From a virus (Duplodnaviria > Heunggongvirae > Uroviricota > Caudoviricetes), in IMG/VR virus record IMGVR_UViG_2609459769_000006: 15,351 nucleotides of DNA; one strand, 5' to 3'. Below, piece by piece: positions 1,031 through 15,351 of this stretch. The notes under the pieces are model-generated. The model had not been told where the DNA came from, did no database searches, and worked only from the letters and a program-made list of their open reading frames with translations. A program made the translations under genes and the position numbers. The number at the start of each line of letters is the position of its first letter. Position 1 is the first letter of the stretch.

Positions 1031-1630
1031 TCAGAAACGGTATCCGATACCAACAATAAATGCATCCGTTCGCCAGTCGCCACTACCGGAACCTTCATAA
1101 GCAAGGTCAATGGTCACGGATTCGGTCGGGTTAAACTGCACGCCAGCCCCCCACGCCAGAGACGTGTTGCTGTGGCGACCGTCATCACTTCCGGTCAGCA
1201 CATCGTGCGTTTTCCCCTTGTTGTCAGTTACGCGGAGATAATCCCCGGAGAAAGTCGACACACGGCTGTAAGCCACACCCGCCATCGCATACGCGCTGAA
1301 CCATTCATTCACGCGTACAGACGGCCCCGCCATCACGCTGAACCAGCGGTTACGCACGGAATCTTCATGCCAGCGGGTATCGCTGTAGCGCGTTTTTTGC
1401 TCATCCTCAGCATTGGCATAACTGAAGGACGTAATCAGCCCCAGCGCGTCCGTAAACTCATAACGGTATTTCACGTTAATCCCGTTCAGATCATCACTAC
1501 CGGGAACGTTCGTCGAGGCATGGAGATACCCCGCGCTCAGCGTGGACTGATGTTCTGCTGCACTCGCTGGCGTAGCAGCGGCGACCTGCCAGACTACTGC
1601 GGACAAAATAACAGCACATAATTTACGCAT
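1031..1630 (-). CDS. lom: Lom outer-membrane protein (Ail/Lom family beta-barrel)
   Basis: 199-aa ORF MRKLCAVILSAV...HQSTLSAGYLHASTNVPGSDDLNGINVKYRYEFTD...AYEGSGSGDWRTDAFIVGIGYRF: signal peptide plus near-identity to my recollection of lambda Lom, ending in aromatic residue typical of OM beta-barrels; GAGAGG SD upstream of ATG 1630. Confidence 0.9.
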   Translation of the reverse strand: MRKLCAVILSAVVWQVAAATPASAAEHQSTLSAGYLHASTNVPGSDDLNGINVKYRYEFTDALGLITSFSYANAEDEQKTRYSDTRWHEDSVRNRWFSVMAGPSVRVNEWFSAYAMAGVAYSRVSTFSGDYLRVTDNKGKTHDVLTGSDDGRHSNTSLAWGAGVQFNPTESVTIDLAYEGSGSGDWRTDAFIVGIGYRF

Positions 1631-1697: not shown

Positions 1698-3068
1698 TCA
1701 GCTAATCGTGATGCCTGCAGTGGCTTTCTTCATCACCACAACCAGCAAATCGCTGATACTTGCTGTGGGATACCAGTTATTTACCAGCCATGCTGACACC
1801 GAAAACTCCAGTGTCATGTGACCGTGACCGGCAGGCATATCAATAACACCACTGTAAATCAGCGTATTATCCAGCGCGGTACGGTTATAAATTTCAGCAC
1901 CGTTTTTCCGCACTATCAGACGGCATGAGGAGTAAATATCAGTATGCTCTTTCTCATGTTTAGCGCCGCTGAATGCCACCGCCGGAATAACAATCTGCCG
2001 GTCAAACGGCTGATCGTCATAAACCCTGACGGTAATGGTTCCTGATGGCCACCGCTCCGGTGCACGGGAGTCCCGGGGGAAAGCTTTGCCCACTGTTTTA
2101 ACGAGATCGCCTTCAATCTGGTTCGCGGACAATTTTCCCAGAACCCGACAGTTCTCGTTAATCGTGACGTTGTTGAGCGTCCCGGAGTTCGCATTCACGT
2201 TACCGCTGATATCGGCATTTTTCGCCGTCAGCCGCCCGTCCGGTGTCAGGGAAAATGCCGGAGGATTACCGCCGCTGGTAATGGTGGGAGCCGTCAGATA
2301 TTTCAGGAACACTTCATTCATAAATATCTGATCGCCCTGACCAACAAACATCGGCTTTGTGTTGCCATTCGCAGGATTAATCATCGCAATCCTGTCTGCC
2401 GCCAGCAGCACCTGACTCTGCATTCCTGCTGGCGTATTCTCAATACCGGCACCGATACCCGCAATATAAAGGCGTCCGTCCTGCATCTGCTGCAGTTTCA
2501 CGGCCCACATGCTGTTCAGGTTATTATTTGTATCAACCTGAACTTTCTGTATCTGCTGGATTGCCGCACTCTGATTTTCCAGTTTTTTATTGACGGTCTG
2601 CGTGATTTCATTGCTGACATTCGTAATGGACGTCCTGATTTCAGCCAGGTCCGGCGCAAGCTGACCGTTATCAATCTGCGTCCACAGCTCCTGGGCCAGA
2701 TGTGTTTTCCCGATTTCTCCTTTGAAAAAATCCAGGTAACCTTCCGCATCATCGCTCGCCCGACCGACAGCCTCCACGAATGCCGATTTGCCAACAGTAT
2801 TCACACTGCGGATATAAAAATAATAATCATGGCCCGGTTTGATATTGATACTGGCAGCTATCCAGTACAGCGCCGAGCCAAGATAGCGGGCTGCGGTTTC
2901 AACCTGCCTGATATCCGCAATCCGCTTTTCCGAGAACCAGAACTCAAACTGTATCCGTGGTGGGGTTGTCGAACTCATCCGCCACCGCAGGACCGTTATC
3001 TGACTAACCTGTATTTCAAAATCAGAGAGGACCGTCGTAAGGCTGCACGGGGAGAGTAATTCAATGAC
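1698..3068 (-). pseudogene. J: Host-specificity/central tail fiber protein J, C-terminal fragment (5'-truncated remnant, about 456 codons of open frame)
   Basis: Translation contains [24 protein letters not shown]...[50 protein letters not shown]...[45 protein letters not shown], recognised as the C-terminal region of lambda J. Frame is open upstream only to a stop at 3069-3071, so roughly 670 N-terminal codons of a full-length J are absent; first ATG is at 2978. Confidence 0.75.
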
Positions 3069-3408
3069 TCAAAACTATGAACTGATTGTGAAAGGGATCC
3101 GCAATTTTGAGAATAAAGTTACGGTAACTTTAGCGTTACGGGACAAAAAACGCTTTGACGGTGAAATTTTTGACCTGGACATCTCGCTGGACCGTGTTGA
3201 AGGTGCCGCGCTGGAGTTTTATGAGGCAGCAGCCAGAAGGAGCATCAGACAGGTCTTCCTGGATGTTGCTGCCGGGTTATGTGAAGGGGATGAGCAGTCG
3301 CCGGAAAAGCGCCCCGTAATTTTAGAGGCGCAGGATGTGTTGATAACCTACAGAGGAAAACTACCGGGAATAATTACGGGTTCTCTGAAGAGTCCGCCGA
3401 AATGGTAA
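3064..3408 (+). CDS. Hypothetical protein (114 aa), sits at the J truncation junction
   Basis: ORF with GGGGAGAG SD-like sequence 7 nt upstream of ATG 3064; soluble-looking protein; no family recognised. Confidence 0.45.
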
Positions 3409-3646
3409 TTTTACCAGCATATTTTTCATCCAGTAATACAGCAAGCCGCCTGAAAGAGTCTTGTTGTTCCTGAGACCATTTGGGATTGCATGATTCAAAC
3501 TGGATTGATGCCAGCGTTGATTGCATCTGTTCCCTTGGAATTGAGAATGCCAGATATGAGAAGGCGACGGTAAGGGTATTCACGTCTTCCCGAAGCCTGG
3601 AAATGCTGTCGAGCAACTCCTGTAGAGAAATGGTGTTATTGTCCAT
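3374..3646 (-). CDS. Hypothetical protein (90 aa)
   Basis: ORF with GAGGAT SD 6 nt upstream of ATG 3646; 3' end overlaps the 3' end of the convergent 114-aa ORF by 35 nt; no family recognised. Confidence 0.4.
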   Translation of the reverse strand: MDNNTISLQELLDSISRLREDVNTLTVAFSYLAFSIPREQMQSTLASIQFESCNPKWSQEQQDSFRRLAVLLDEKYAGKITISADSSENP

Positions 3647-3751
3647 AAATAATCCTCATGATTGTATTGACCTGTTAGCAGCCTGAGGCAACAGGCTGGA
3701 ACTGATAAACATATCCAGGGCTCAGAAACCGATAAATCCTGATAAATATCC

Positions 3752-4315
3752 ATGAACGCAAAAATCAGATACGGCCTGTCGGCTGCCGTTCTGGCGCTGA
3801 TTGCCGCTGGTGCGCCTGCGCCTGACATTCTCGACCAGTTTCTGGATGAAAAGGAAGGTAACCACACCACGGCATACCGTGATGGCGCGGGTATCTGGAC
3901 CATCTGCCGCGGTGCCATCCTGGTGGATGGCAAACCTGTCGTTCCGGGCATGAAGTTGTCGAAGGAAAAATGCGACCGGGTTAACGCCATTGAGCGTGAT
4001 AAGGCGCTGGCATGGGTGGAGAAAAACATCAGAGTGCCATTGAGTGAACCCCAGAAACGGGTGATCACCGGGATTGCGTCAACGCCTTCTCCGGATCGGG
4101 ATGGTGACATCCTGGAGCCGGAGGGCGCGGAGTTTGGCAGTGCGATCCCGTTTCTCTGGCAGCATGACCATTCCCGCCCGGTGGGGCAGTGTACGGTACG
4201 CCGGGTCAGCGAAGGGCTGGAAATCACGGCAACACTGGTGAAGCCCGTACCGGATATGCCGTCGCAACTGGCTGCCCGGCTGCCGGGCCAGCCACTCCAT
4301 TCAGTTTCGGAGTAA
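3752..4315 (+). pseudogene. Chimeric remnant: SAR-endolysin (GH24 phage lysozyme) N-terminus fused in frame to a prohead protease (HK97-type) N-terminal fragment
   Basis: Residues 1-105 (nt 3752-4066): signal-anchor-like LSAAVLALIAAGA followed by lysozyme catalytic E-8aa-D-5aa-T pattern (EGNHTTAYRDGAGIWT). Residues from about 106 (nt 4067-4315): IASTPSPDRDGDILEPEGAEF...PFLWQHDHSRPVGQ, resembling the N-terminus of caudoviral prohead proteases. Too short for either full enzyme; no holin upstream; no clear SD. Confidence 0.55.
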
Positions 4316-5309
4316 CCGTGGCACTGCCGGCGGTGAACACCAGCTCCAGCGTCTGCCAGTCGTTACTGTAATTCCCGAACTCGCCCAACTTTGTGTTTCC
4401 TGCTTTCCTGTGATGCATCAGATTCAGTTTGCCGTCTGTGGTCTGGGTGAAGAACGACATCAGGAACGGGTTACCAGTCCCGGTCATCGTCACGACGTCA
4501 GGTAACGCTACATCGGTATACAGATAAATTCCCAGACCGAACTGGTTGTTGGTCAGTGCGCCTGACAGTCGAAACTTACAGCTCAGTCTGCCACCCCGTG
4601 TCAGCAGGGAGACTGCGTCATCCACCGGATGCATCAGGGACCAGGTTTTATTGCTCTGCTTGGTAACCTTAAACACACCATCTTCCAGCGCAACACTGCC
4701 GCCGGTGATGGTCCAGCCCTGCGCAGCAGCCTCTCCGGCTGTCGGCAGCAGGGAGACTGTACGAACGGATGTGTCACCATCAGACGGCCCCGATGGCGTG
4801 TCGCCGCCGGGCGAGGGTTTAATCTCCGGTGCGGTACCGCTGATGAAGGCGCTGGTTCGACCAACTGCGTTCAGAATAGCGGTTGCCAGGCGATCCGAAA
4901 TAATGCCCCTGCGCGCCCATGAACTGAAATGTGTCGGACGATTTGACGATACCCAATTACCATTACTACGGGATTGCGCGCCGTAATAACCTGCATCAGC
5001 AATATCCGGGTCTTCTGCCGGTAAGTTGGTGGGCGTGTTGTTGCCGTTACCGTCGGTCATGAACGGCACAAAGAAAACGTTGTCGCTCTCCCTGTTTTTG
5101 TACGCGCCGTAGACGGAGTCATACTGTGTGCCGTATGTGTTTTTCCAGTAATACGTCGTGTCGCCACAAATCCACGGTACAACTGCAGCACTGCCGCCAT
5201 GGCACTGCGCCGCCAGCCCGGCAAGGTCAGCACGGAACTGCTGTACCATTGCAAGAAATGCTGCTGGCTGCTGGGCGTACCAGAACAGATCGAAGTAATA
5301 CCCGCACAT
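4224..5309 (-). CDS. Hypothetical two-domain protein (361 aa): Cys/aromatic-rich N-domain, Pro/Ser/Gly linker, C-terminal Gly/Thr-rich probable beta-rich domain
   Basis: Longest and most protein-like ORF in this GC-rich stretch; start ATG overlaps the stop of the upstream 92-aa ORF in a TAATG arrangement (5305-5309), suggesting translational coupling; linker PEIKPSPGGDTPSGPSDGDTS. No family recognised. Confidence 0.6.
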   Translation of the reverse strand: MCGYYFDLFWYAQQPAAFLAMVQQFRADLAGLAAQCHGGSAAVVPWICGDTTYYWKNTYGTQYDSVYGAYKNRESDNVFFVPFMTDGNGNNTPTNLPAEDPDIADAGYYGAQSRSNGNWVSSNRPTHFSSWARRGIISDRLATAILNAVGRTSAFISGTAPEIKPSPGGDTPSGPSDGDTSVRTVSLLPTAGEAAAQGWTITGGSVALEDGVFKVTKQSNKTWSLMHPVDDAVSLLTRGGRLSCKFRLSGALTNNQFGLGIYLYTDVALPDVVTMTGTGNPFLMSFFTQTTDGKLNLMHHRKAGNTKLGEFGNYSNDWQTLELVFTAGSATVTPKLNGVAGPAAGQPVATAYPVRASPVLP

Positions 5310-5587
5310 TACCTCCAGATCCGTTGCTGGAATGTGCGGGACGGACGCGCTGGCCGTTCTGAGTAAGGGAGCCTGACGGAGATTATCCAGTGACGGTAGT
5401 CGAGGCTAAGGGCTTTTTTAACCTCGCATCCGCGCCCGCGGTAACACTGAATGAGCCATTCAGCCTGTTCTTCGGTGCAGGGGTCGTGCTGATACCAGTC
5501 AGATTTGAATGCATGAGAACGCCGCCCGTGCCTGCTGGCAGGGGCGGCAGAGTTATCCGAATTGTAAAATTTGGTATCGTGCGCCAT
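5309..5587 (-). CDS. Hypothetical protein (92 aa), first gene of a coupled pair
   Basis: ATG at 5587; stop overlaps start of the 361-aa ORF (TAATG). Contains Cys-containing segment DPCTEEQAEWLIQCYRGRGC. Weak SD. Confidence 0.5.
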   Translation of the reverse strand: MAHDTKFYNSDNSAAPASRHGRRSHAFKSDWYQHDPCTEEQAEWLIQCYRGRGCEVKKALSLDYRHWIISVRLPYSERPARPSRTFQQRIWR

Positions 5588-5854
5588 CTGTTTTCTCTGC
5601 TGGCGCAGCAGGTGCCAGTTGTTCAGGCTGACGTATGAAGTATAAATAAACTGGCTCCAGTGTAAAGCCCCACCTTAATGGAATAAAAACCAAACAACAG
5701 ATTGCTGGGATAAAAATACAACGCTTATTATTAAAAGCGGTTAGATAAATTAAATTTTAATGTTATGCAAATCTGCCAGATTAGCATAATATTTCATTTG
5801 AAAACCGCTGAAATAACAATCTTATCGGGATTAATCATATTAAGGTGAGTAAAT

Positions 5855-5941
5855 ATGGAAAACAACAAATCTGCACATTACGCTCCTTTTTTATCTGTAA
5901 TACTTTTTGTATTTTGTTGTGTATGGGCGGTATTTTTATAA
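5855..5941 (+). CDS. Candidate small hydrophobic peptide (28 aa, MENNKSAHYAPFLSVILFVFCCVWAVFL)
   Basis: Not in supplied ORF track (below size cutoff). AAGGTGAG SD at 5842-5849, 5 nt before ATG 5855; polar N-terminus then 17 hydrophobic residues; stop TAA 5939-5941 followed 20 nt later by a hairpin terminator; lies in AT-rich intergenic DNA convergent with the protease gene. Codons verified by hand. Confidence 0.3.
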   Translation: MENNKSAHYAPFLSVILFVFCCVWAVFL

Positions 5942-5961
5942 AACACACCCACAAATAAATC

Positions 5962-5981
5962 AAACCCGCTACAGCGGGTTT
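5962..5981. terminator. Putative bidirectional intrinsic terminator
   Basis: Perfect 8-bp inverted repeat AAACCCGC-taca-GCGGGTTT; T-rich sequence follows on both strands (plus: gatttatat; minus: gatttatttgtgggtgtgtttt). Positioned between the protease stop (5996-5998) and the small plus-strand ORF stop (5939-5941). Confidence 0.5.
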
Positions 5982-5995
5982 GATTTATATAGTTG

Positions 5996-8260
5996 TTATA
6001 CGGAAACTGGCACACGAGCAGGCAATGGATAGTGAGCCCAGTTATTAGCATTTAAAGCTCTTACGCCATCAGCATAAACTTGTGTGTTTCCATCTAATGA
6101 TTTTAAAGTTACTACAATAGTTACAGGTAAAGGCTCCATTAAGGCCGGTTCATTCGCTCTCAACGTTGTTTTAGCTTGAAGAGCCCAGTTACCCGAAGTA
6201 ATTCCTTTATTAAATGCCTTGCGATGAATTTTTACTGGTGACCACTTTCCACCATGCTCAATTTGAGCTCTCTCATATCCAGATTGACCGTTTTCTCCTT
6301 CCATAGGTACTTTTCCTTTTATAGTATTATTCTCAATTAAGCCAAAACTTAGCTCTACGTTCGCGCGAACATATTCACTGCCGGCATTAGGGTTCAGTGG
6401 TGGTGCATATGCAGCAGTAATTACAATCTCACCTTTAAATTTTCCATTTTGAATAAGTGCCGATGGTATGGGATAGTTTTCCTTTCTCCACCTCACCCCA
6501 GGAACCAAGAATGTTTGGAAAATCAGAGTAAACCTATCATCACTATCATATAAGGTCTCAATAACCTCATTAGGAATTCCCGCTCCCAAATAGCGTCTTT
6601 CACTTGGCGAGTAATCAGGAGAAGATAATTGAGCGGAATGAATTAATAATGCTTTAATCAATGATGGTGAAACATTAAAGTCTGAATTAGTGGCTATTCT
6701 CTGCCATGTATGCGCAGCTAAACTTGCCACAATTGGAGCAGCAAAACTAGTACCAAAATTAGAGCAAAGCCTATTATCTGGCCCTACGACCTTTAAACTG
6801 CTTGCTCCTACATTCCAAGGTCTATGAACCCCACCGCCAGCATGGATTATATCTGGCTTTGGAGTAAATACAGGCCCAGGGCCACGACGAGTATATGGTG
6901 TCGGTGTTCCAATTTCACTTAAAGCATCATTAGCTTCCATATGAGAAACTGAACCAACTGTTAGTGCTCGGACTGACTCTCCAGGAGAGGAAATTAAATC
7001 AGCACCTCCAAGCGGATCAGGATTTGGCCATGTACGTATAGGTTCATCTACATAATTACCTGCAGCAACTACAAACAAAATACCAAATTTATCGCTGAGC
7101 CGATCTAACTCCATCGCAAAATCACTAAACATCTGCTCATTACATGGTCCGCCTCCCAAAGATAAATTCCAGACTTTTATATCTGGTCTTTTATTTACAG
7201 CATCTGCTAGCCTCAGAATTAAATCTGATATATAAGATCCATTTTCATCTAAAGCACAAACATCATGGATTTTAGATTTTGTATCAGGAATCCATGGATG
7301 ATTGTCATTTAAAAAATGAGCGCCTGATATCAATGAAGACACCATAGTCCCATGTTCATAACTCGTATCAGGAGGAATTACGTATGTTTCCCTACTCACT
7401 ACCCAAGGAGTAATTGTTGCCGCGATGGGGCTTACCCCAGTGTCAAATACAGCAACAATGGGTAATTCTTCTGATGGTACGGGAAAGCTATTTGTTTCAA
7501 TGCCAACAGAATCACTTACACTAACCGGGAATGCTGAATATTTTGGTTCTGGAATTAACGTTCTTATACCCGGGTAATCAATGAGAATGTCTAATATATA
7601 TCTATCATTTGGGGATAAATCCATTATCCTTAATAAGGGAAGACCACATTTTGGTCTAATCTCATCATATTTAACTCCGTGTTGTTCTAATATAGAAATA
7701 ACGTTTTCATAGTTGTTGTAAGTTGCATCTTCACCTGTGTACTCAAATAGTCGTACAAGGATGTTTGATGATTCAAACAAACCATCAGTGCCTCCTGGAA
7801 CCTTCCTATTCTCATCCCAAGGTTCAATGCGCTCAATCGCGCTTAGATTAGCCAAAATCGCTTTAATATTCCGATGTAAAATGACTGACTCTAATACGTC
7901 AAAACAGCCGGCATGAGCAGCAACCAACATTTCATCTATTTTGGCATGACCGGCATTTTGCAATCCAGCCTCTTGAGCAATTTTGTTCGGCCTATGCGTT
8001 TTGGCTATTCCCTGGTCTCTTAATTTGAAAACCAAAGTACCCAAGCTTCCAGGGTACTCTGAAAGTTTGGATTCTAAATAATGTTTACTGGTTGTTAAAT
8101 TTCTTACTAGCCCTTGTCTATATTCGGCTGTTACATCAACCAATACCTTTGCCCCACCGCCAGCGTTTACTATTGCACCCAAGTCACTACTGGAAAAAGG
8201 GATTCTTAACATTGGGTTTGTAACTTTTGCGTTACTAAACTGTGTACCCCTTCTGCTCAT
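5996..8260 (-). CDS. Large subtilisin-like serine protease (peptidase S8 fold) with uncharacterised N- and C-terminal extensions, 754 aa
   Basis: Canonical subtilase order and motifs: Asp in VAVFDTGV (D273), His in YEHGTMVSS (H303), oxyanion Asn in VVAAGN (N401), Ser in GTSFAAP (S505). About 255 residues before and about 195 after the catalytic domain with no recognised motifs. ATG 8260 preceded by AGGAG; start overlaps ATPase stop by 26 nt. AT-rich codon usage. Confidence 0.85.
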   Translation of the reverse strand: MSRRGTQFSNAKVTNPMLRIPFSSSDLGAIVNAGGGAKVLVDVTAEYRQGLVRNLTTSKHYLESKLSEYPGSLGTLVFKLRDQGIAKTHRPNKIAQEAGLQNAGHAKIDEMLVAAHAGCFDVLESVILHRNIKAILANLSAIERIEPWDENRKVPGGTDGLFESSNILVRLFEYTGEDATYNNYENVISILEQHGVKYDEIRPKCGLPLLRIMDLSPNDRYILDILIDYPGIRTLIPEPKYSAFPVSVSDSVGIETNSFPVPSEELPIVAVFDTGVSPIAATITPWVVSRETYVIPPDTSYEHGTMVSSLISGAHFLNDNHPWIPDTKSKIHDVCALDENGSYISDLILRLADAVNKRPDIKVWNLSLGGGPCNEQMFSDFAMELDRLSDKFGILFVVAAGNYVDEPIRTWPNPDPLGGADLISSPGESVRALTVGSVSHMEANDALSEIGTPTPYTRRGPGPVFTPKPDIIHAGGGVHRPWNVGASSLKVVGPDNRLCSNFGTSFAAPIVASLAAHTWQRIATNSDFNVSPSLIKALLIHSAQLSSPDYSPSERRYLGAGIPNEVIETLYDSDDRFTLIFQTFLVPGVRWRKENYPIPSALIQNGKFKGEIVITAAYAPPLNPNAGSEYVRANVELSFGLIENNTIKGKVPMEGENGQSGYERAQIEHGGKWSPVKIHRKAFNKGITSGNWALQAKTTLRANEPALMEPLPVTIVVTLKSLDGNTQVYADGVRALNANNWAHYPLPARVPVSV

Positions 8261-9389
8261 ATGCTCCTGACTCCTTCAGAATGTTTGAAATTACTCTTGA
8301 TGTAAGTTTGTACAAATTAGCAAGAACTCTGATAGAAAATAATTTTTTATCTTTAGAACGTAACCAACGAATTTCATCTTCGTAAGTGCTTAAATTTACA
8401 CCTTCCATAAGCGATTGCGCAAGATACAAACGCCTATACAATTTATGGTGATTTATCACACTTGCACCTTCAATAACTGCATCCCTACGTGCATCCAAGC
8501 TCACCTGTTCAATTATTGCTCCGGATAATCCCTCCGATTTTCTTGATAAATCACTTAAATCTAGATCGCTACATATCATATTCTTTAAACGATTTTTCCA
8601 AATTAACTCTCTCTGATGTATGTCAGGCAGAGGCATTGGAATTCTGAAGCTAAATCGCCTCCAGATTGCAGGATCCAGAAGTTGCTCATGGTTAGTTGAG
8701 GCAATAATTACCGTATCCTCTGATGCCGCATCCATATTCTGCAATAGTGAAATGACAACTCGCTGAAGCTCACCTATATCTCTCTCATTACCTCTTGCTC
8801 CAGCTAAAGCATCAAATTCGTCTAAAAAAAGCACTGATGGCCTCTGCATTACATAATCGAAAACCTGTCTAAGATTTTTGCTGGTTTGTCCCAATAAACT
8901 ACTAATCAAAGTATCGCAACGCACTGTAAGAAGTGGAAAATCTAAGCGGGTAGCGATGTACTTAGATAACATAGTCTTACCTGTTCCTGGCTTTCCATAC
9001 ACGAGCATACGACTCGGCAATGCTGCATCAGCTTTAACAAACTCATCATAACGTTGAACATTAGTGATAAACTCTTCAACACGGGTACTGATTGCTGCAG
9101 GCAGAAAAATCTCTGAACTGTCTAATTTAGGATAACTGACATCAACAGTGTTGAGTCGACTATCAATATCTACCGGTAATGAGCCCAGAGATATCCCACC
9201 TCCAGCCCTTTGAGCTCCTGCCAACGCCTGGGGAGCTCTAAGCAACCTTTCTCTTATCATTCTGGCTTGCTTGACCTCCCCTTTTTGTTCGAGCTTATCT
9301 GCCAGCAACCCAGCATAATTACTAGCCATCGAAGCATTTGCCTTTGTTGCACCTTCAATGATTTTTAACACTTCTGATAAATAATCCAT
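8235..9389 (-). CDS. AAA+ ATPase (classic AAA clade), 384 aa
   Basis: Walker A GKPGTGKT (res 132-139), Walker B VLFLDEFD (186-193), sensor-1 STN (231-233), second region of homology with arginine pair PAIWRRFSF (240-248). GGGAG SD 7 nt upstream of ATG 9389. 3' end overlaps protease start (operon). Confidence 0.85.
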   Translation of the reverse strand: MDYLSEVLKIIEGATKANASMASNYAGLLADKLEQKGEVKQARMIRERLLRAPQALAGAQRAGGGISLGSLPVDIDSRLNTVDVSYPKLDSSEIFLPAAISTRVEEFITNVQRYDEFVKADAALPSRMLVYGKPGTGKTMLSKYIATRLDFPLLTVRCDTLISSLLGQTSKNLRQVFDYVMQRPSVLFLDEFDALAGARGNERDIGELQRVVISLLQNMDAASEDTVIIASTNHEQLLDPAIWRRFSFRIPMPLPDIHQRELIWKNRLKNMICSDLDLSDLSRKSEGLSGAIIEQVSLDARRDAVIEGASVINHHKLYRRLYLAQSLMEGVNLSTYEDEIRWLRSKDKKLFSIRVLANLYKLTSRVISNILKESGAYEQKGYTV

Positions 9390-9582
9390 TCAACACTCCC
9401 ACAACAAAAAGCCACAGCAATCAAAAAATGAGCACACAGAATCAAAATACTCTCTAATCGTAACGCATTTTGAGATTTTTGATACGTTTTTTTGGGATTA
9501 TGTAACGCCAAATGGTCATTTTGTGTCAGAAAAATAAATCTTAGTACCGAGAATATGTAGCTTCCATCCTTCATCGTTCTAT
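9390..9582 (-). promoter_or_regulatory. AT-rich upstream region of the ATPase-protease operon (probable promoter region, not mapped)
   Basis: 193-nt AT-rich non-coding spacer between the stop of the 143-aa gene and the ATPase start; contains TTGATT/TTGATTG-like -35 candidates on the minus strand. No precise -10/-35 assignment claimed. Confidence 0.3.
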
Positions 9583-10014
9583 TCATCCCTGATCTCCAAG
9601 CCTCTCTCGAAAACCATTCTGATAAAACGCCAGCACACGCTGCATAACTTCGCTCTTCCGGCACTCGCGACAGATTATGTTCAGACGCCTGTCGTAGCGG
9701 CGTATTTCTCCGTCTGGTAATGACCAGATAAGGTCCGGATCAACCACAGATGGTTTCTTCACCTTTGCCCTGGATAGTTTTTTGCGGGCATTTTGCCAGT
9801 CCTTACGAGCCTGTTCAGACGGGAATAACCCGTAACCAGAGTTGTATACATCGCCACTGGCAACCAGCTCTCTGGCGAGAACGCTCATCAGATATCTTGT
9901 CGCACCTGTCTTGGCTTCCAGTTGCCGTAACGTCTCGCGCCCACTCCGGCGTACTAGCTCAACAACCTGCCCTTTAATTTTTTCCCGCTCTTCTTGTGTA
10001 AATACTTTTGCCAT
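9583..10014 (-). CDS. Hypothetical protein (143 aa from ATG 10014; ORF track used an upstream TTG), possible winged-helix N-terminus
   Basis: GGAGG SD 7 nt upstream of ATG at 10014-10012; begins MAKVFTQEEREKIKGQVVELVRRSG...; basic C-terminal half with single CxxC. Immediately follows the stop of the upstream gene (10030-10032). Confidence 0.5.
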   Translation of the reverse strand: MAKVFTQEEREKIKGQVVELVRRSGRETLRQLEAKTGATRYLMSVLARELVASGDVYNSGYGLFPSEQARKDWQNARKKLSRAKVKKPSVVDPDLIWSLPDGEIRRYDRRLNIICRECRKSEVMQRVLAFYQNGFRERLGDQG

Positions 10015-10029
10015 AAGCGCCTCCGGCAA

Positions 10030-10791
10030 TCACTTTTCCGATACAACACGGCGGGAAGAATCAGTAATCTGTCGAACAATATCCCGGTGCTTGTTCAGCT
10101 CCCGCAGCGCGGCGCAGACTCGCTCCCACTTCTGGACATGATTTTTCGCCCGACGCAGTTCGCGGTTTGCCATATGCAGTGATGGTAAAACCAGGTCATC
10201 CGCTCGCGTTTCAGTAAACGATGGCAGCGACTGCACAATGTCCGCCACAGTTTCTGTTTTAATATCTTCCTGTGTTGCAGCCTCCTGTACTGGTAACGCA
10301 ACACCTGCGGTATGAGGAAAGGCCTTACCATCAGTTTCCGCTACCGATGCTGCTTTCGGCTCTGCTGGTAAATTATCGCCCGGTATGCAGTAACGAAATT
10401 TACCGCCCTGATTTACGCGAATCAGACGACCTTTGCTGATTGCCATTGCCAGCGTTGAAGCCACTTTGCGTGATGTGGTACCAAACAATGTAGCCAGCTC
10501 ATCAGCCATTTGTGGTCCTCGTTGTTCAATCGTCGCGGTTAAATCGCACTCTGAGATTTTCGCTACTGTTGCTGTGGTGATTTCTTCCGGCAGTTCTGCC
10601 TGCGCTGGCTGTTCCTGCTGAACGTTGTTATCAGCCACACGCCAGGTGTACGCGCTTTTATCAACAAAACCAGCCTTTTTCAGTTCCCATAGTTCGTTCA
10701 GCACTTCTTCACGACTGATATCAAGTCGCGCAGCAAGTTCTATGGATGTGGCTTTTCCCATTGCTTTCAGTGCGTCAAAAACAGTCTCCAT
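10030..10791 (-). CDS. Hypothetical phage protein with apparent tandem winged-helix-like segments (253 aa from ATG 10791; alternative upstream ATG at 10842 gives 270 aa)
   Basis: GGGAGA SD 9 nt upstream of ATG 10791 and no overlap with DnaC-like gene; the longer start would overlap the upstream gene by 29 nt. N-terminus [43 protein letters not shown] resembles a wHTH. Occupies the YdaW position of Rac-type prophages. Confidence 0.55.
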
Positions 10792-10813
10792 TAAATTTTT
10801 CTCCCGGTAAAAA

Positions 10814-11560
10814 TTACTTCGCAATTCCTGGCTGGACGACATTCGGACGCCAGCTCTCCCAGTTAAAATTCACCCATAGCCCGCCGTTCATGGTCATGCG
10901 ATCCATAATCCGCTCGCCGAGCAATGTTTTCATGGCCTCATAGTTCAGGTTTGTCAGCATCCCCACGCTGCGCATCGACGCTGTCCGGCGATCAACAATC
11001 TGGTGCAGTACCACCTGCTCGTTTTTCGTCTCGCGCTGAATGCCAATTTCATCAAGAACCAGCAGATCCACTTCGCACAGTTCCCGCAAAAATTTTTCGC
11101 CTGACTGCCCATCGTCATAGCTGGCGTGGAGGGCACTCATAACATCAGCCACGGTAACCACAATCACTGTCTGACCGTCTTTCAGCAGGCGATTCCCGAT
11201 AGCTGCTGCTAAGTGGTTCTTCCCGGTACCAGGTTTTCCGCTAAACGCGAAATTTGTGCATCCGGTCATCAGTTCATCAGCGATAGATTTCGCCTGGCTC
11301 AACGCGTATCGCTGACCGTCGTTCTGCACCTGGTAATTCGCAAACGAGCATTTACGGTGCAACGGCTGGATGCCTGAGCGATTCAGAATTTTTTCCACCC
11401 GCAACTGGCGATTCAGGCGGTTGATCTCCTCGCTACGTTTCTGGCCTTCAGCAAGTTGCCACTCGTGCCACTCCGCTACCGTTCTGAATGGGGCGGTTAC
11501 ATGTGGCGGAGCCAGTCTTCGGATACGTTCAAGAACGCCGCCTGCCGCAATGTTTTTCAT
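10814..11560 (-). CDS. ydaV: DnaC-like replicative helicase loader (AAA+), Rac YdaV-like
   Basis: Walker [16 protein letters not shown], Walker [10 protein letters not shown], and C-terminal half closely resembling host DnaC ([23 protein letters not shown]). Symbol assigned by synteny, size and recollection, not by alignment. Confidence 0.8.
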
Positions 11561-11566
11561 GACACG

Positions 11567-12529
11567 TCACCCCCTGAATCCCGGCGGTATTTCAGTGTCC
11601 GGTTCAGAAATGTGATTCACGCAACGCTGCGCAGGCAAACGCCCCAGGCGGATAACCAGTTCATCCCATTTTTCCCGGAGTTTTGCCGGACTCATGATGT
11701 TTTTTACCCAGAACGAATCCCGCTGGAGACGCCCAAACATTTCACAAATTTGTCTGTGAGTTCTGCCATCCAGCATCCGCATTGTGCGAACGTCATTGGC
11801 CCATGCTGTCCAGTTGGGTTCTTTCGGTCTAGTGATCTCGCCATCATAGCTGGCCGCCTGCTCGTAAAGACTCACGATTCGTCCCCAGATCCACTGTGCG
11901 CACACCAAATCTTCCTGACTTCCCCACTGGCGTTTTTTCGCACTGAACACAACCGCGTCAGGGTGTCGGGTTAAAAAATCCTGTTCAGCCGTCTGCGGGT
12001 CCGGTTGCGAAGCGTCCGGACAAGAAGATCTTTTATCTGACGGATCAGGTTTTAATACTGACGGATCGGGGTCAATCATCGGCCCCCTAATCGGCAGTTT
12101 TTTATCAACAGTTGATCCATCAAAATTTGACGGGTCAACCGTTGAGGGGTCAATATTTGACGGGTCAACTGTTAACGGGTCATTTTTTGCCGGGCTAATT
12201 TTTCTTTTCGGTTTATATGACTCACGCGCCGCCGCCGCAGCTGCTTCGAGTTTTTCCACATTAAGCCGATAGATATTGCTTACATTACGCCCACCGACCT
12301 TACGCTCTTCCTTCGTCAGCCAGCCCTCTTTCGCCAGTTCTGCAATAGCCGATTTCACTGTGGATTCACTTCTTGCACCGATCTGACGCCGGATAGTTTC
12401 AATGGCAGGCCATGACACGCCCTCGTCATTGCTGTAGTCTGCAAGACGGGCCATAACCGCCACCCTGGATAAGATCATGCCGGTGAAGGCGCACCCTTCC
12501 CAGACAAGACCATGAAGCTTGCTGCTCAT
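11567..12529 (-). CDS. Phage replication initiator protein (O-like / YdaU-like): N-terminal wHTH, repeat-encoded linker, C-terminal domain
   Basis: ORF track start at 12544 is GTG; an ATG at 12529 preceded by a G-run is used here. N-terminal HTH-like region (VSWPAIETIRRQIGARSESTVKSAIAELAKEGWL), linker with repeated DPSxxDPSTVDPSN motifs encoded by DNA direct repeats, stop 7 nt before DnaC-like start. Confidence 0.7.
   Translation of the reverse strand: MSSKLHGLVWEGCAFTGMILSRVAVMARLADYSNDEGVSWPAIETIRRQIGARSESTVKSAIAELAKEGWLTKEERKVGGRNVSNIYRLNVEKLEAAAAAARESYKPKRKISPAKNDPLTVDPSNIDPSTVDPSNFDGSTVDKKLPIRGPMIDPDPSVLKPDPSDKRSSCPDASQPDPQTAEQDFLTRHPDAVVFSAKKRQWGSQEDLVCAQWIWGRIVSLYEQAASYDGEITRPKEPNWTAWANDVRTMRMLDGRTHRQICEMFGRLQRDSFWVKNIMSPAKLREKWDELVIRLGRLPAQRCVNHISEPDTEIPPGFRG
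12037..12183. repeat. Iteron-like direct repeats inside the replication initiator gene (candidate origin of replication)
   Basis: Core TGACGG(A/G)TCA at 12038-12047, 12059-12068, 12128-12137, 12158-12167, with related GGGGTCAA / ACGGGTCA units between them at about 15-bp periodicity; several units are near-palindromic (TTGACGGGTCAA). Lambdoid ori iterons classically lie within the O-gene linker region. Confidence 0.5.
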
Positions 12530-12551
12530 AAACCCCCCGAACACCGTGCTT

Positions 12552-12977
12552 TTAGTGCATCACCACAGCATTCCCTGCCGGGCCGCCGCGATTCATCTGG
12601 TCATACAAAACAACCGCTGACGCAACAAAATCATCGACATCCTTCACCAGCCGATCCCTCCGTTCGACGATCTCACGGTAATATTCAGAACTGTGGCTGC
12701 GCATACGGGCCACCAGCAAAGGCGGCATCGCCTTTTCGATCGCCGGTAACAGAGCCTGCATTTTTTCAACAGCATCAGGGGTGTCTTTATCCAGCCAACG
12801 GAAAATTTTCTGGGTATTACGGGCCAGGGCTTCCGGATGGCTGTCGTCATACAGTTCCGGGAACGTCATTCCCAGCTCGAAATACGCTTTGGTAATTTTC
12901 GCAGCCGGCACTTTTTCGCCGTCCGGATGCGCCCAGACATTCATCGCCATGCGGATGTGTTCATGCTTGATTTTCAT
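12552..12977 (-). CDS. ydaT: YdaT-like protein (reported functional analogue of CII in Rac/CP-933P-type immunity regions), 141 aa
   Basis: Position directly after the Cro-like gene and before the replication genes; size about 140 aa; sequence MKIKHEHIRMAMNVWAHPDGEKVPAAK... matches my recollection of YdaT. AGGAG SD 8 nt upstream of ATG 12977. Not verified by alignment. Confidence 0.6.
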   Translation of the reverse strand: MKIKHEHIRMAMNVWAHPDGEKVPAAKITKAYFELGMTFPELYDDSHPEALARNTQKIFRWLDKDTPDAVEKMQALLPAIEKAMPPLLVARMRSHSSEYYREIVERRDRLVKDVDDFVASAVVLYDQMNRGGPAGNAVVMH

Positions 12978-13242
12978 GAATCAAGCTCCTAGAAAGTGGT
13001 TGTGTTAACGTTTTGGTATCTTCCAGCTCGGGCCAAATATTCATCCAATCAAAAGGCCTTAGTTGCTGACGTGTAACTTCACCATTACTGGCTCGCTCAA
13101 TAAGGACACATAACGATGCCCCTAACACTTGACCTTTACTCAATGCCTTTCTTAGATAACCGATGCTGGTACCACACTCGCATGCAAACATACGCTGTTC
13201 ATCTGACGAAAGAGAATTGAGAAATATTCTTAATTCTTCCAT
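12961..13242 (-). CDS. ydaS: Cro-like HTH regulator (YdaS-like), 93 aa
   Basis: First gene of the rightward-type operon, divergent from repressor; AAGGAG SD 6 nt upstream of ATG 13242; HTH-like segment CGTSIGYLRKALSKGQ. Symbol by synteny. Confidence 0.6.
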   Translation of the reverse strand: MEELRIFLNSLSSDEQRMFACECGTSIGYLRKALSKGQVLGASLCVLIERASNGEVTRQQLRPFDWMNIWPELEDTKTLTQPLSRSLIHENQA

Positions 13243-13342
13243 AGCTACTCCTTAGTAAACACAGCAAAGAATACCCACAGGTAAACAAAAGTCAATACCC
13301 ACAGGTTGTTTACCTTGCGGTAATCGCATCTATTATTTACCT
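13243..13342. promoter_or_regulatory. Divergent promoter/operator region (OR-like) between Cro-like gene and repressor
   Basis: Three copies of a 12-mer, consensus TACC(C/T)A(C/T)(A/G)GG(T/A)(A/T): 13272-13283 TACCCACAGGTA, 13296-13307 TACCCACAGGTT, 13339-13350 TACCTATGGACA (overlaps repressor start codon). Minus-strand promoter candidate TTGACT (plus coords 13290-13295), 16-nt spacer, TATTCT (13268-13273). Plus-strand TATTAT at 13331-13336 only 6 nt before the repressor ATG. Confidence 0.55.
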
Positions 13343-13762
13343 ATGGACAAATATGAATTTAGACGACAGCAACTCATCAAAATTCGTGATGAGAAATGCG
13401 ATGGTAAAGCGGTTAACGTGGCCAGAAAGATCGGGCGCGAGCCTTCTTATGTATCAAGAATGTTGTACCCAGAGGGGAAAAAGGGAAAAAAACGGATCGC
13501 TGATGATATGGTGGAGATTATCGAAGAGTCCTTTGGGTTACCCCGGGGATGGATGGATGGTATCGTTTCATCATCAACGAACACAGCCTCCAGTTATGAA
13601 ACAAGGGTTCTAACGCCACGACAACGTATTTTTTTAGATCTCTTAGACGAACTGCCAGAAAGTGAAGCGGATAAATTATTAAAAACTCTTGAAGAGAAAA
13701 AACAGTATTACAATATGATCTACGAAGAAATCCGTAAAAAGAAAGCACAAAACGCATCATAG
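13343..13762 (+). CDS. Prophage repressor (CI functional analogue, RacR-like), HTH N-terminus, no LexA-type peptidase domain
   Basis: 139-aa ORF divergent from Cro-like gene; HTH-like GKAVNVARKIGREPSYVSRMLY; C-terminus charged/coiled-coil-like without the Ser/Lys dyad region of S24 autopeptidases; flanked on both sides by operator-like 12-mers. No in-frame upstream start exists. Confidence 0.7.
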   Translation: MDKYEFRRQQLIKIRDEKCDGKAVNVARKIGREPSYVSRMLYPEGKKGKKRIADDMVEIIEESFGLPRGWMDGIVSSSTNTASSYETRVLTPRQRIFLDLLDELPESEADKLLKTLEEKKQYYNMIYEEIRKKKAQNAS

Positions 13763-13804
13763 CTCACCAAACAACTAGTCACCAGTTAAGACACCGCAAA
13801 AATT

Positions 13805-13841
13805 TACCCATGGGTATTTACTTTTTAAATACCTATGGGTA
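13805..13841. promoter_or_regulatory. OL-like operator pair / candidate leftward-type promoter downstream of repressor gene
   Basis: Perfect palindrome TACCCATGGGTA (13805-13816) and TACCTATGGGTA (13830-13841), 25 bp centre to centre, same consensus as the OR sites; plus-strand TTTACT (13817-13822), 17-nt spacer, TATCCT (13840-13845) as a possible promoter overlapped by the second site. Confidence 0.45.
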
Positions 13842-13946
13842 TCCTTCTTTTCATACCAACCCACCCCGCCCCACAGAATGCAGGGCAATACTTCGAGTTA
13901 CCAGGCAGTGGTCAGGGGTTAAGTAGCCAGCCCGAGGCGTAAGAAC

Positions 13947-14180
13947 ATGACGGCAGGGTTCAACTTTAATAACTATGCAGCAGGTTTTTGTTCCGCTACC
14001 CCGGCGTTAAGGGGAAATGAGGTCAACATGGATATGCTCAATCTTGGCAACAACGAATCTCTGGTATGTGGCGTGTTCCCCAACCAGGACGGCACGTTTA
14101 CCGCGATGACGTATACCAGAAGCAAAACGTTTAAAACTGAAGCTGGCGCGCGTCGCTGGTTAACCAGAAACACTGACTGA
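13947..14180 (+). CDS. Small hypothetical protein (77 aa; alternative start ATG 14028 gives 51 aa)
   Basis: ORF downstream of the OL-like sites; internal ATG at 14028 has a GAGG SD 5 nt upstream. Stop TGA overlaps the next ATG (TGATG at 14178-14182). Occupies the ydaF/ydaG-like position of Rac-type prophages; no sequence recognition. Confidence 0.4.
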   Translation: MTAGFNFNNYAAGFCSATPALRGNEVNMDMLNLGNNESLVCGVFPNQDGTFTAMTYTRSKTFKTEAGARRWLTRNTD

Positions 14181-14593
14181 TGAGGTTGACGATGGAATTT
14201 AAAGATTTACCAGTACCATTCCAGGAAATGGCATCGAATGTGGTTCGCTCTCAACTGGCGACTCTTGACCTGAGTACCGTAGAAAAAGAAACCATCGATA
14301 CTATATCCGGTAACGTGCGTCGTGCCTTTATAGGTCTGTATGAAGAGAAGCGCCTATTCGGCGGACAGAATTCGCCTGAAAACAAGAATCAAGCAAATGA
14401 TGAGAAGCTGAAACACATTATCGCCTTACTTTTGGAAGACGCAAAACGTCTACAGCAACTGGAACCAAATGCAGGCACAGAGGCCCGCATTTGGATTGCC
14501 ATGAAATCACTCAAATGTGAAAGCAGTGATTATTTCAAAACAACAATTAAAACTACTCAACTTTCGGGAGAGCTACTGAAGAAATTGCCATAA
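14180..14593 (+). CDS. Hypothetical protein (137 aa)
   Basis: Start coupled to upstream stop (TGATG); alternative ATG at 14192 with GAGG SD. No family recognised. Confidence 0.5.
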   Translation: MRLTMEFKDLPVPFQEMASNVVRSQLATLDLSTVEKETIDTISGNVRRAFIGLYEEKRLFGGQNSPENKNQANDEKLKHIIALLLEDAKRLQQLEPNAGTEARIWIAMKSLKCESSDYFKTTIKTTQLSGELLKKLP

Positions 14594-14831
14594 GAGCATG
14601 GTCTTTCTCTTGTTCTGCAAGATGAGCATTAATACCTGGTATGGTTTTTTCAAATTTATCTATCTGTTGAATAACAACTTCGCGGTATACGTTTGTTTTT
14701 GTACCACCAAGCGCAGCCGTTAATGCAGAAAGCATATTTAGTATCATATCAGTGCGATATGAAAGAATCCTGATAGCTTCATCTTGTTTTTCAATAATAG
14801 ATTGCAGGGCCTCAATTTGCTTTTTATCCAT
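14553..14831 (-). CDS. Hypothetical protein (92 aa from ATG 14831; ORF track used an upstream GTG), coiled-coil-like
   Basis: AGGAGG SD 5 nt upstream of ATG at 14831-14829; convergent with, and overlapping by 41 nt, the 3' end of the 137-aa gene. Confidence 0.45.
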   Translation of the reverse strand: MDKKQIEALQSIIEKQDEAIRILSYRTDMILNMLSALTAALGGTKTNVYREVVIQQIDKFEKTIPGINAHLAEQEKDHALMAISSVALPKVE

Positions 14832-15351
14832 TTCACCCTCCTGAGGGTTGGTAATTAAGGAGTTCTCCACGGGTCAGGTGGAGTGCGTGCGCCGGACACG
14901 GGTGAACATCCGGCACTGACAGTTTACTGAAAGGATATGTCCCTGAAAAGTCAGGGCATAACGCGAAAGCGCACGGCGAAATTGGTCTCTCTGTACGGTG
15001 TCGTTAAATTTAGTTCGACCGTGCGCTTCCGGTTGTGGCAATCCGCGAAATGGTGCGGCGGTAAGTATGGCGGGGTTATTCCTTCCCCCGTTGAGGACAC
15101 CGGGTTGTCAGGTTGACCATACGCTTAAGTGACAACCCCGCTGCAACGCCCTCTGTTATCAATTTTCTGGTGACGTTTGGCGGTATCAGTTTTACTCCGT
15201 GACTGCTCTGCCGCCCTTTTTAAAGTGAATTTTGTGATGTGGTGAATGCGGCTGAGCGCACGCGGAACAGTTAAAACCAAAAACAGTGTTATGGGTGGAT
15301 TCTCTGTATCCGGCGTTAATTGTTAACTGGTTAACGTCACCTGGAGGCACC

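Follow-up and report, generated by a model that had tools for sequence, protein, structure and literature searches.

Deletion and inversion in a defective lambdoid prophage of Escherichia coli as the probable origin of an apparently coupled gene pair

In lambdoid and Stx phages, the nanS-p gene sits between the antiterminator gene Q and the lysis cassette (PMC10462455). These prophage sialate O-acetylesterases include L0105 of 933W, vb_24B_21/gp84 of phi24B and the NanS-p of Stx2 phage 86. Their DUF1737/SASA/lectin-like architecture and their gene position between Q and the holin gene (PMC10462455) are shared by a 618-aa esterase (the parent, below) encoded in a prophage of E. coli TUM14664. 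The DUF1737 domain binds the capsid in phi24B (bioRxiv 10.64898/2026.04.10.717836). The SGNH blocks have been defined for E. coli NanS (YjhS; 3PT5) (PMC10792757), and an RPTH variant of the His block has been recorded for the NanS-p of phage 86 (PMC10462455). The other system that bears on this locus is the Qin-type module, in which a small ORF is followed by ydfU (DUF968), rusA and Q. This module opens with a 92-aa gene, whose homologue in Qin of K-12 is followed by ydfU and then by the Q-type antiterminator gene ydfT.

We analyzed a 15,351-nucleotide stretch of DNA (IMG/VR record IMGVR_UViG_2609459769_000006; the window), in which two ORFs of 92 and 361 aa had been proposed to form a translationally coupled pair of unknown function. 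Both ORFs are present exactly as the original prediction gave them (Table 1). It was also correct that the pair is GC-rich (0.56-0.57 over 4251-5500 versus 0.37-0.42 in the adjoining 5501-9500) and that it lies between AT-rich cargo and a lysis remnant, which correspond to the IetA/IetS genes and to a piece of a lysozyme gene. The PADLOC scores for the adjoining IetA and IetS were 9e-143 and 3e-300, and neither ORF of the pair matched a PADLOC model. As an intact relative we used the prophage of TUM14664 (L001), whose annotation lists the 92-aa CDS, DUF968, RusA, an antiterminator, a DNA methyltransferase, three tRNAs and the 618-aa SASA esterase, and compared it with the window by blastn. Positions 5277-14826 of the window matched L001 14452-24001 at 99.98% and positions 4281-5279 matched L001 7602-8600 at 99.9% nucleotide identity, and two segments, 4056-4282 and 2997-4066, were inverted relative to L001. 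The window thus differs from the TUM14664 prophage by three illegitimate-recombination junctions. These alignments indicate, with a probability that we put at about 0.93, that a deletion and an inversion have left a scar here in a defective Qin/dic-type lambdoid prophage of E. coli. Rfam and tRNA scans of the region found no RNA gene, and a promoter/terminator scan gave two promoter-like sites against 1.9 expected from shuffled sequence, which is no excess.

Table 1. Features of the locus, in window coordinates
Feature	Position	Strand	Basis or detail
Lysozyme remnant, on one side of the ORF pair	3752-4066	+	
Chimeric ORF: lysozyme N-terminus and capsid/prohead-protease fragment	3752..4315	+	Pfam, PHROGs, blastn
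Lysozyme/capsid junction of the 3752..4315 ORF	4056-4066		blastn and junction sequences
361-aa ORF	4224..5309	-	ORF and translation
Last 18 codons and stop of the 361-aa ORF, antisense through a capsid/protease gene fragment	4224..4280	-	Inverted alignment
Internal esterase fragment, codons 243-575 of 618 (NanS-p-type SASA)	4281..5279	-	blastn, protein alignment
Junction B: esterase fragment to inverted capsid-gene fragment, 2-bp microhomology TG	4281..4282		blastn and junction sequences
Truncated DUF6645 lectin-like jelly-roll domain	4287..4604	-	Pfam PF20350, E=6e-19, profile 1-110 of 119
Only SGNH catalytic block kept: THFS, His block, RPTH variant	4923..4934	-	ORF residues 126-129
Ancestral ydfU (DUF968) GTG start (5307-5305), now opening a dead-end 26-codon ORF	5227..5307	-	
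Junction A: 5,851-bp deletion (L001 8601-14451), 3-bp microhomology GTA	5277..5279		blastn coordinates and junction sequences
Codons 1-10 of the 361-aa ORF (MCGYYFDLFW): ydfU 5' end in the wrong frame	5280..5309	-	Alignment to L001
TAATG overlap	5307..5311	-	TAA 5311-5309, ATG 5309-5307, read from sequence
Intact 92-aa gene, phage nin region	5309..5587	-	TUM14664 CDS WP_032183375.1
AT-rich cargo IetA/IetS, on the other side of the ORF pair	5996-9389		

The 361-aa ORF is a chimera of the ydfU 5' end, esterase residues 243-575 and an antisense capsid tail. Its esterase part is identical to residues 243-575 of the TUM14664 SASA esterase CDS (WP_032278306.1) at 332 of 333 aa, A506T being the sole change, and the ORF matched phrog_143 over positions 252-589 of 634 (E=4e-155). 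It therefore descends from a member of the NanS-p/SASA family. The original prediction could not place the large protein in any family; it corresponds to an internal part of this esterase that has lost both ends. In a local alignment, similarity to the parent starts only at ORF residue 11, and the C-terminal tail AGQPVATAYPVRASPVLP did not align to the parent at all. Window positions 4056-4282 correspond to L001 733-507 in inverted orientation, inside a CDS annotated 'phage major capsid protein'. The ORF owes its length to 333 codons derived from a real gene.

We found that the parent consists of DUF1737 (PF08410, residues 3-50), SASA (Pfam, residues 66-262) and DUF6645. Residues 59-379 of the parent aligned over the whole NanS structure 3PT5 (E=1e-122) and its C-terminal part aligned with the NanS-p C-terminal domain 6YP6 (E=9e-31), the domain reaching residue 614. 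Among phages, Stx2-converting phage 86 gave the best DNA match, to its 'SASA family carbohydrate esterase' (86%). The parent has the same SGNH blocks as NanS, and the RPTH variant of block IV is common to the phage 86 enzyme and the parent. In contrast to these esterases, the window retains no more than residues 243-575 of 618, with foreign codons at both ends, and of the NanS-like domain defined by 3PT5 only roughly the last 137 residues are covered. The nucleophile Ser block I (GQSNA, parent residues 71-75) is absent from the 361-aa ORF, and the oxyanion-hole blocks II (RGGSAF, 174-179) and III (MQGEFD, 232-237) both lie in the deleted part. Since the fragment begins at parent residue 243, only THFS (parent 358-361) remains of the catalytic blocks, kept as RPTHFS in agreement with the R-x-S/T-H-F-S pattern of the His block. 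Pfam did not detect SASA in the 361-aa ORF, though it was found in the parent, and DUF1737 was absent from both window ORFs in the Pfam search.

The two-part architecture with a Pro/Ser/Gly linker that had been noted for the large ORF is real: the linker (approximately residues 148-189) separates the end of the NanS-like catalytic domain from the DUF6645 domain. The latter is the sole Pfam domain detected in the ORF, as in the RefSeq E. coli CDSs annotated by PGAP as 'DUF6645 domain-containing protein' (e.g. H32, H38, H41), which are nanS-p-derived and have homologous DNA; none of these loci has the junction to the 92-aa gene that is seen in the window. The C-terminal jelly-roll is incomplete, as the fragment ends at parent residue 575 and the alignment of the parent with 6YP6 reaches 614. 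In place of the final 43 residues of the parent stand 18 unrelated ones. Any product of the 361-aa ORF would probably be an inactive pseudogene fragment with no function. On the other hand, the His block and most of the lectin-like domain are kept, so that some residual binding is conceivable, and some translation is conceivable as well given the strong Shine-Dalgarno sequence GGAGG just upstream of TAATG. Fragment and parent differ by one nucleotide in 999, a divergence too small for a test of relaxed selection.

The 92-aa gene, on the other hand, is a real protein-coding gene, and purifying selection acts on it. Its translation was 100% identical to that of L001 14484..14762, and the match of the protein to phrog_1212 spanned the whole profile (1-66 of 66, E=1e-34). 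Of 158 homologous clusters, the 120 listed carried Escherichia or Shigella names throughout and were mostly 90-92 aa long. The frame was intact in all six homologues analyzed; dN/dS was 0.06-0.27 with four homologues, comparable to 0.10-0.18 for ydfU. Across 26 sequences of the family 30 columns were invariant, and one of the three cysteines of the protein (C37) was family-conserved. In Qin of K-12 we found an intact ORF between rem and ydfU that was 78% identical to the gene. Searches of Pfam, NCBIfam and PADLOC with the 92-aa protein gave no match, and a PDB sequence search gave nothing significant. An AlphaFold2 model had a mean pLDDT of 67, rising to approximately 85 for a beta-alpha-beta-beta core (residues 29-74). 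Foldseek of this model against PDB and BFVD gave no match at E<=1e-3; the best viral match, Orf QD1 of N15, was above this threshold (E=6e-3) and offered no functional clue. We also considered whether the protein was Rem of K-12, which is a separate gene upstream, or a DUF1737 domain, which belongs to the N-terminal part of the esterase that was deleted, and rejected both. Coding on the opposite strand, where an 82-aa plus-strand ORF matches phrog_2734, was rejected since this ORF is interrupted by stops in three of five homologues.

The normal downstream partner of the 92-aa gene is ydfU, which encodes a DUF968, Orf-like/HNH protein and has been lost from the window. DUF968, RusA and Q lie downstream of the gene in TUM14664, strain 2013C-3264, phage vB_EcoS-640R1 and Stx2_14040, and a 1-nt gap to the ydfU GTG (TAA-N-GTG) was kept in every intact example of the Qin-type module that we examined. 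This DNA segment was present in 3,482 of 5,426 complete E. coli genomes. Compared with the module, the window has lost ydfU, rusA and Q. We infer that the 92-aa protein works with YdfU; that it is an uncharacterised nin-region factor acting as a partner, regulator or inhibitor of YdfU is a tentative and rather doubtful proposal, and that the chimeric ORF, if translated, has acquired a glycan-binding role is still more speculative. In the window the 92-aa gene survives without its partner ydfU.

The stop/start overlap on which the apparent coupling rested is real, although it lies at 5307-5311 and not, as first given, at 5305-5309. It is inherited from the junction of the 92-aa gene with ydfU, whose ancestral start is the GTG located two bases downstream in another frame. 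PGAP and EcoCyc-type annotations begin ydfU at this GTG (VRVLLR...), and in the window its frame meets a stop after 26 codons. At the overlap position we found GGAGGTAACGTG in Qin of K-12, L003, L004 and L005, while TAATGTG occurred only in the window and in TUM14664; the four other homologues read TAACGTG and hence have no ATG. The overlap ATG is thus a fortuitous, lineage-specific start.

These observations point to the following history. The intact ancestor had an early rightward operon of IetA, IetS, the 92-aa gene, ydfU (DUF968), rusA and Q, followed by the methyltransferase gene, three tRNAs, nanS-p, the holin gene, ydfR and the lysozyme gene. Illegitimate recombination at a 3-bp GTA removed 5,851 bp, reaching from ydfU codon 10 to nanS-p codon 242. 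Missing from the window relative to L001 across this deletion are ydfU (DUF968), rusA, Q, the DNA methyltransferase gene, the three tRNAs and esterase codons 1-242. The leftover esterase frame is in phase with the ATG overlapping the 92-aa stop by chance (one frame in three), and because of this in-frame ATG an ORF finder lists a 361-aa "gene" with the look of translational coupling. In a second rearrangement the lysis-to-head region was inverted and deleted and the last 43 esterase codons were cut off, so that the ORF reads through 18 codons of antisense capsid sequence and then stops. The order of these events is deduced from the end product only. The late promoter region of lambdoid phages lies just downstream of Q. 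The prophage is defective because the deletion removed Q and, presumably, this promoter region as well. The IetAS defence cargo is still intact in the window despite the deletion.

Several other explanations for the locus were weighed against this deletion and inversion scar. The features that led to the original prediction, namely the shared strand, the stop/start overlap, the phage-like GC content and the location beside cargo, would suit a real accessory operon (moron) of two genes that prophages conserve as a unit, yet we regard such an operon as very improbable. In the intact TUM14664 prophage 5.85 kb and ten annotated features separate the two pieces, their adjacency was found in no complete E. 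coli genome, and the large ORF comes from the interior of a known 618-aa protein. The idea of a coupled pair acting as a functional unit thus did not hold, the partner of the small gene being ydfU/DUF968. Nor did that of conservation as a unit, since the esterase fragment adjoins the small gene only in clonal copies and the homologues have ydfU downstream. A moron or accessory origin does suit the large ORF itself, which derives from nanS-p, a gene located between Q and the lysis cassette (PMC10462455). The suggestion that the two proteins might instead be a tail fibre and its chaperone gained no support, as neither ORF gave a match of that kind in Pfam, NCBIfam or PHROGs.

The exact 361-aa ORF was present in at least ten contigs, all of them 99.7-100% identical over 2.4-11.3 kb including all junctions, while the junction was absent from all 5,426 complete E. 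coli genomes searched and was not found in an exact-match scan of GTDB species representatives. All copies of the junction are therefore clonal; carriers include the isolates of GCA_000704785.1 and GCA_009767305.1. This bears on the proposal that the ORF is a young neo-gene, expressed by reinitiation at the overlap ATG and yielding a non-catalytic glycan-binding or decoy product through its lectin-like domain. The persistence of the remnant in several isolates and in gut metagenomes would seem to favor it, but with every copy clonal (99.7-100% over kilobases) persistence is uninformative on selection. Similarly, the GGAGG Shine-Dalgarno sequence and the TAATG overlap would allow reinitiation, but the gap from the Shine-Dalgarno to the ATG is only 2 nt, the ancestral GTG competes for ribosomes and the overlap ATG is not conserved in the family. 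Although most of DUF6645 is kept, 43 residues are missing from the end of the jelly-roll, and the N-terminal part amounts to 137 residues of a broken alpha/beta fold. We therefore consider a neo-gene unlikely by a wide measure. A chimeric contig was considered as well, since three junctions crowded into 2.3 kb are unusual and assemblies of short reads are commonly broken by prophage repeats. However, identical junctions were found in at least four independent isolate assemblies and in three metagenome assemblies, and their microhomologies are typical of illegitimate recombination, which makes an assembly artefact scarcely credible.

The locus is a routine example of already known biology, in which prophage decay has produced a plausible-looking but spurious "operon", and it carries little biological weight. 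It does call for caution: where a cryptic prophage shows a long ORF with a stop/start overlap, this ORF may be a deletion chimera, and automated pipelines call such ORFs as genes. Several assemblies carry a call of this kind for the 361-aa ORF, and related truncated loci bear the name 'DUF6645 domain-containing protein'. As a minor by-product, the analysis brought out a conserved gene of 92 codons that the K-12 MG1655 annotation lacks, though it is intact there (NC_000913.3 1644306-1644584, minus strand). The plus-strand ORF that begins with the lysozyme remnant is also chimeric: Pfam Phage_lysozyme covers its residues 33-102 and phrog_617 and phrog_80 cover residues 99-172, and it converges on the 361-aa ORF, overlapping its 3' end.

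The original prediction described a translationally coupled gene pair of unknown function. ORFs of 92 and 361 aa were indeed read from the sequence as claimed, and the pair is GC-rich (56-57% vs 37-42% in the adjoining cargo). The TAATG stop/start overlap also exists, although it lies at 5307-5311 (minus strand; TAA at 5311-5309 and ATG at 5309-5307), two bases off the proposed 5305-5309. The observation was correct while its interpretation was mostly wrong: the "pair" is a deletion chimera made up of an inactive remnant from a well-known family (the large ORF) and a small ORF whose natural partner is ydfU. The locus holds nothing new in kind.

The large ORF, which had been placed in no family, is a fragment of the NanS-p family. 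Its residues 11-343 matched positions 252-589 of the 634-position phrog_143 in PHROGs (E=4e-155), and Pfam detected DUF6645 alone (residues 236-341); the linker and two-part architecture noted earlier were both borne out. In DNA searches window 4281-5279, and only that stretch, matched esterase genes, annotated as 'SASA family carbohydrate esterase' or '9-O-acetyl-N-acetylneuraminic acid deacetylase', with an identity of 85-86% in Stx-converting and other lambdoid phages and up to 99.9% in E. coli chromosomes. Local alignment equated residues 11-343 with residues 243-575 of the 618-aa NanS-p-type esterase of E. coli TUM14664 (the parent), with a single substitution, A506T. Ahead of this stretch the ORF opens with ten residues (MCGYYFDLFW) that come from an out-of-frame reading of the 5' end of ydfU, and the last 18 (AGQPVATAYPVRASPVLP) are an antisense reading of an inverted capsid/protease fragment.

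No place in any of 5,426 complete E. coli genomes covered at least 80% of window 4100-5750. The segment 5277-5700 matched, at up to 100%, a separate place annotated 'hypothetical protein' and 'DUF968 domain-containing protein', and both pieces of the pair were found 5.85 kb apart in the intact relative prophage of TUM14664. At junction A 5,851 bp were deleted, with the loss of ydfU past about codon 10, rusA, Q, a small hypothetical gene, the methyltransferase, three tRNAs and esterase codons 1-242; a tRNA scan accordingly found no tRNA gene in the window. The short overlaps at the junctions are microhomologies typical of illegitimate recombination. Beyond the pair, the whole of 2997-4282 runs opposite to its orientation in the intact prophage, and to its left lie a C-terminal piece of the tail-tip J protein, which it borders, and lom. 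The DicF small RNA gene marks a Qin/dic-type lambdoid prophage.

Coordinates of the features in the window and in related prophages (TUM14664 positions count within the prophage locus)
Feature	Window	Related prophage	Details
92-aa ORF	5309-5587 (-)		
361-aa ORF	4224-5309 (-)		
blastn block 1	5277-14826	TUM14664 14452-24001	same orientation, 99.98%
blastn block 2	4281-5279	TUM14664 7602-8600	same orientation, 99.9%
blastn block 3	4056-4282	TUM14664 733-507	inverted, 100%; within capsid gene
blastn block 4	2997-4066	TUM14664 7166-6097	inverted, 99.7%; parts of holin and lysozyme genes, ydfR, a small ORF
Junction A overlap	5277-5279		GTA
Junction B overlap	4281-4282		TG
Third junction overlap	4056-4066		imperfect 11-bp
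Gene order 1 (transcription direction)		TUM14664	cro/YdaT/O/ydaV-type early and replication genes, DUF1627, DUF977, iteA, iteS
Gene order 2		TUM14664	92-aa hypothetical protein, DUF968 (352 aa), RusA, antitermination protein
Gene order 3		TUM14664	small hypothetical protein, DNA methyltransferase, three tRNAs
Gene order 4		TUM14664	SASA esterase (618 aa), holin, YdfR, lysozyme; further on terminase, major capsid protein
92-codon homologue		K-12 Qin locus 6307-6585 = NC_000913.3 1644306-1644584 (-)	between rem and ydfU
IetA/IetS cargo	5996-9389 (-)		AT-rich
Hairpin	5955-5988		perfect 15-bp-stem palindrome
187-aa chimeric ORF	3752-4315 (+)		residues 1 to about 102, phage lysozyme N-terminus; remainder, HK97-type prohead-protease/major-capsid fragment joined via 5.36-kb deletion at 4056-4066
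Inverted segment	2997-4282		holin tail, ydfR, small ORF, lysozyme and capsid fragments
J fragment	1698-2978		
lom	1031-1630		
DicF gene	15165-15216 (+)		Rfam RF00039, 76.7 bits
Shadow ORF	5390-5638 (+)		PHROG match
Shadow ORF	4546-4986 (+)		PHROG match
Shadow ORF	3580-4227 (-)		PHROG match

The proposed translational coupling did not hold. In K-12 Qin and three other loci with a 92-aa homologue the junction reads GGAGGTAACGTG, that is, the stop, one base and the GTG of ydfU. Since TAATGTG occurred only in the window and TUM14664 among the loci compared, the ATG is a single-base, lineage-specific variant out of frame with ydfU. The start of ydfU itself is the GTG at 5307-5305 (VRVLLR...), a frame that ends after 26 codons in the window. 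The deletion chanced to bring the esterase into that frame, and only for this reason is the ATG the "start" of a long ORF.

The parent contains DUF1737 (3-50), SASA (66-262) and DUF6645 (468-578); its residues 59-379 align with NanS (PDB 3PT5, E=1e-122) and 422-614 with the crystallised NanS-p C-terminal domain 6YP6 (E=9e-31). The SGNH blocks of 3PT5, GQSNA with the Ser nucleophile, RGGSAF, MQGEFD and R-x-SHFS (PMC10792757), correspond to parent residues 71-75, 174-179, 232-237 and 358-361. Because the fragment begins six residues past the third block, only the His block (RPTHFS) is left, whose RPTH variant is known from NanS-p of Stx2 phage 86 (PMC10462455). The lectin-like jelly-roll domain, thought to serve as a carbohydrate-binding module (PMC10462455), is without its last 43 residues, and DUF1737, the part of the phi24B esterase recently reported to bind the capsid (bioRxiv 10.64898/2026.04.10.717836), is likewise missing. 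Judged from its sequence, the large ORF cannot be an esterase. An accessory gene had been expected at this position, and nanS-p is such a gene, but a functional pair is not what the deletion left.

The exact 361-aa protein was found on at least 10 contigs, from at least four draft E. coli assemblies and gut metagenomes, and the carrier loci matched the window at 99.7-100% identity over 2.4-11.3 kb, all junctions included. An assembly artefact is ruled out by such near-identical loci in several assemblies; they are one remnant inherited by descent. The junction was absent from the 5,426 complete genomes and from GTDB species representatives. The pair was seen together only in clonal copies of this remnant, and its distribution gives no evidence of selection on the pair.

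In TUM14664 the CDS annotated WP_032183375.1 gives exactly the same 92-aa translation. A homologue search gave 158 homologous clusters; among the 120 listed, source names, where given, were Escherichia or Shigella, lengths were mostly 90-92 aa, and all but two were 'hypothetical protein' with no Pfam domain (the exceptions being 'lysis protein', PF03245). Conservation is high across the core, F27 to R92, and C37 is the sole invariant cysteine. In five intact loci (TUM14664, strain 2013C-3264, phage vB_EcoS-640R1, Stx2_14040/PPompW and K-12 Qin) DUF968/YdfU lies 3' at an unchanged distance of 1 nt, and is itself followed by RusA and Q in the first four and by the Q-type antiterminator ydfT in Qin. 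K-12 MG1655 Qin carries an intact homologue (78% aa identity), at which no CDS is annotated despite purifying selection on the family. Pairwise dN/dS was 0.06-0.27, similar to the 0.10-0.18 for ydfU (first 150 codons). The frame was unbroken in all six homologues, and on these grounds the 92-aa ORF is a real gene. The antisense 82-aa ORF, which has its own PHROG, was rejected as the coding frame, being stopped in three of five homologues; for the same reason its PHROG, at least, looks like a set of spurious gene calls. In the window three PHROGs (phrog_2734, phrog_30307 and phrog_22558) match shadow ORFs on the strand opposite to real genes.

Neither PADLOC nor a PDB sequence search gave a match to the 92-aa protein. 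AlphaFold2 models it with a beta-alpha-beta-beta core (pLDDT about 85) behind a disordered N-terminus, and Foldseek retrieved nothing at E<=1e-3. Since DUF968 proteins have been described as combining an Orf-like DNA-binding domain with an HNH motif (PMC4118853), synteny with ydfU suggests that the 92-aa protein may act with YdfU in nin-region DNA metabolism.

The neighbouring cargo encodes IetA and IetS, which form an intact system of anti-phage defence (AAA ATPase and S8 peptidase; PADLOC 9e-143 for IetA and 3e-300 for IetS; iteA/iteS in RefSeq for the reference prophage), while the surrounding phage late functions have decayed. The hairpin directly 3' of ietS is terminator-like both ways and may insulate the cargo from the 92-aa gene. 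One gut-metagenome copy of the remnant (L008, 3050-5314) has IetS broken into two products, of 648 and 102 aa, which suggests that the defence gene too is beginning to decay in some carriers.
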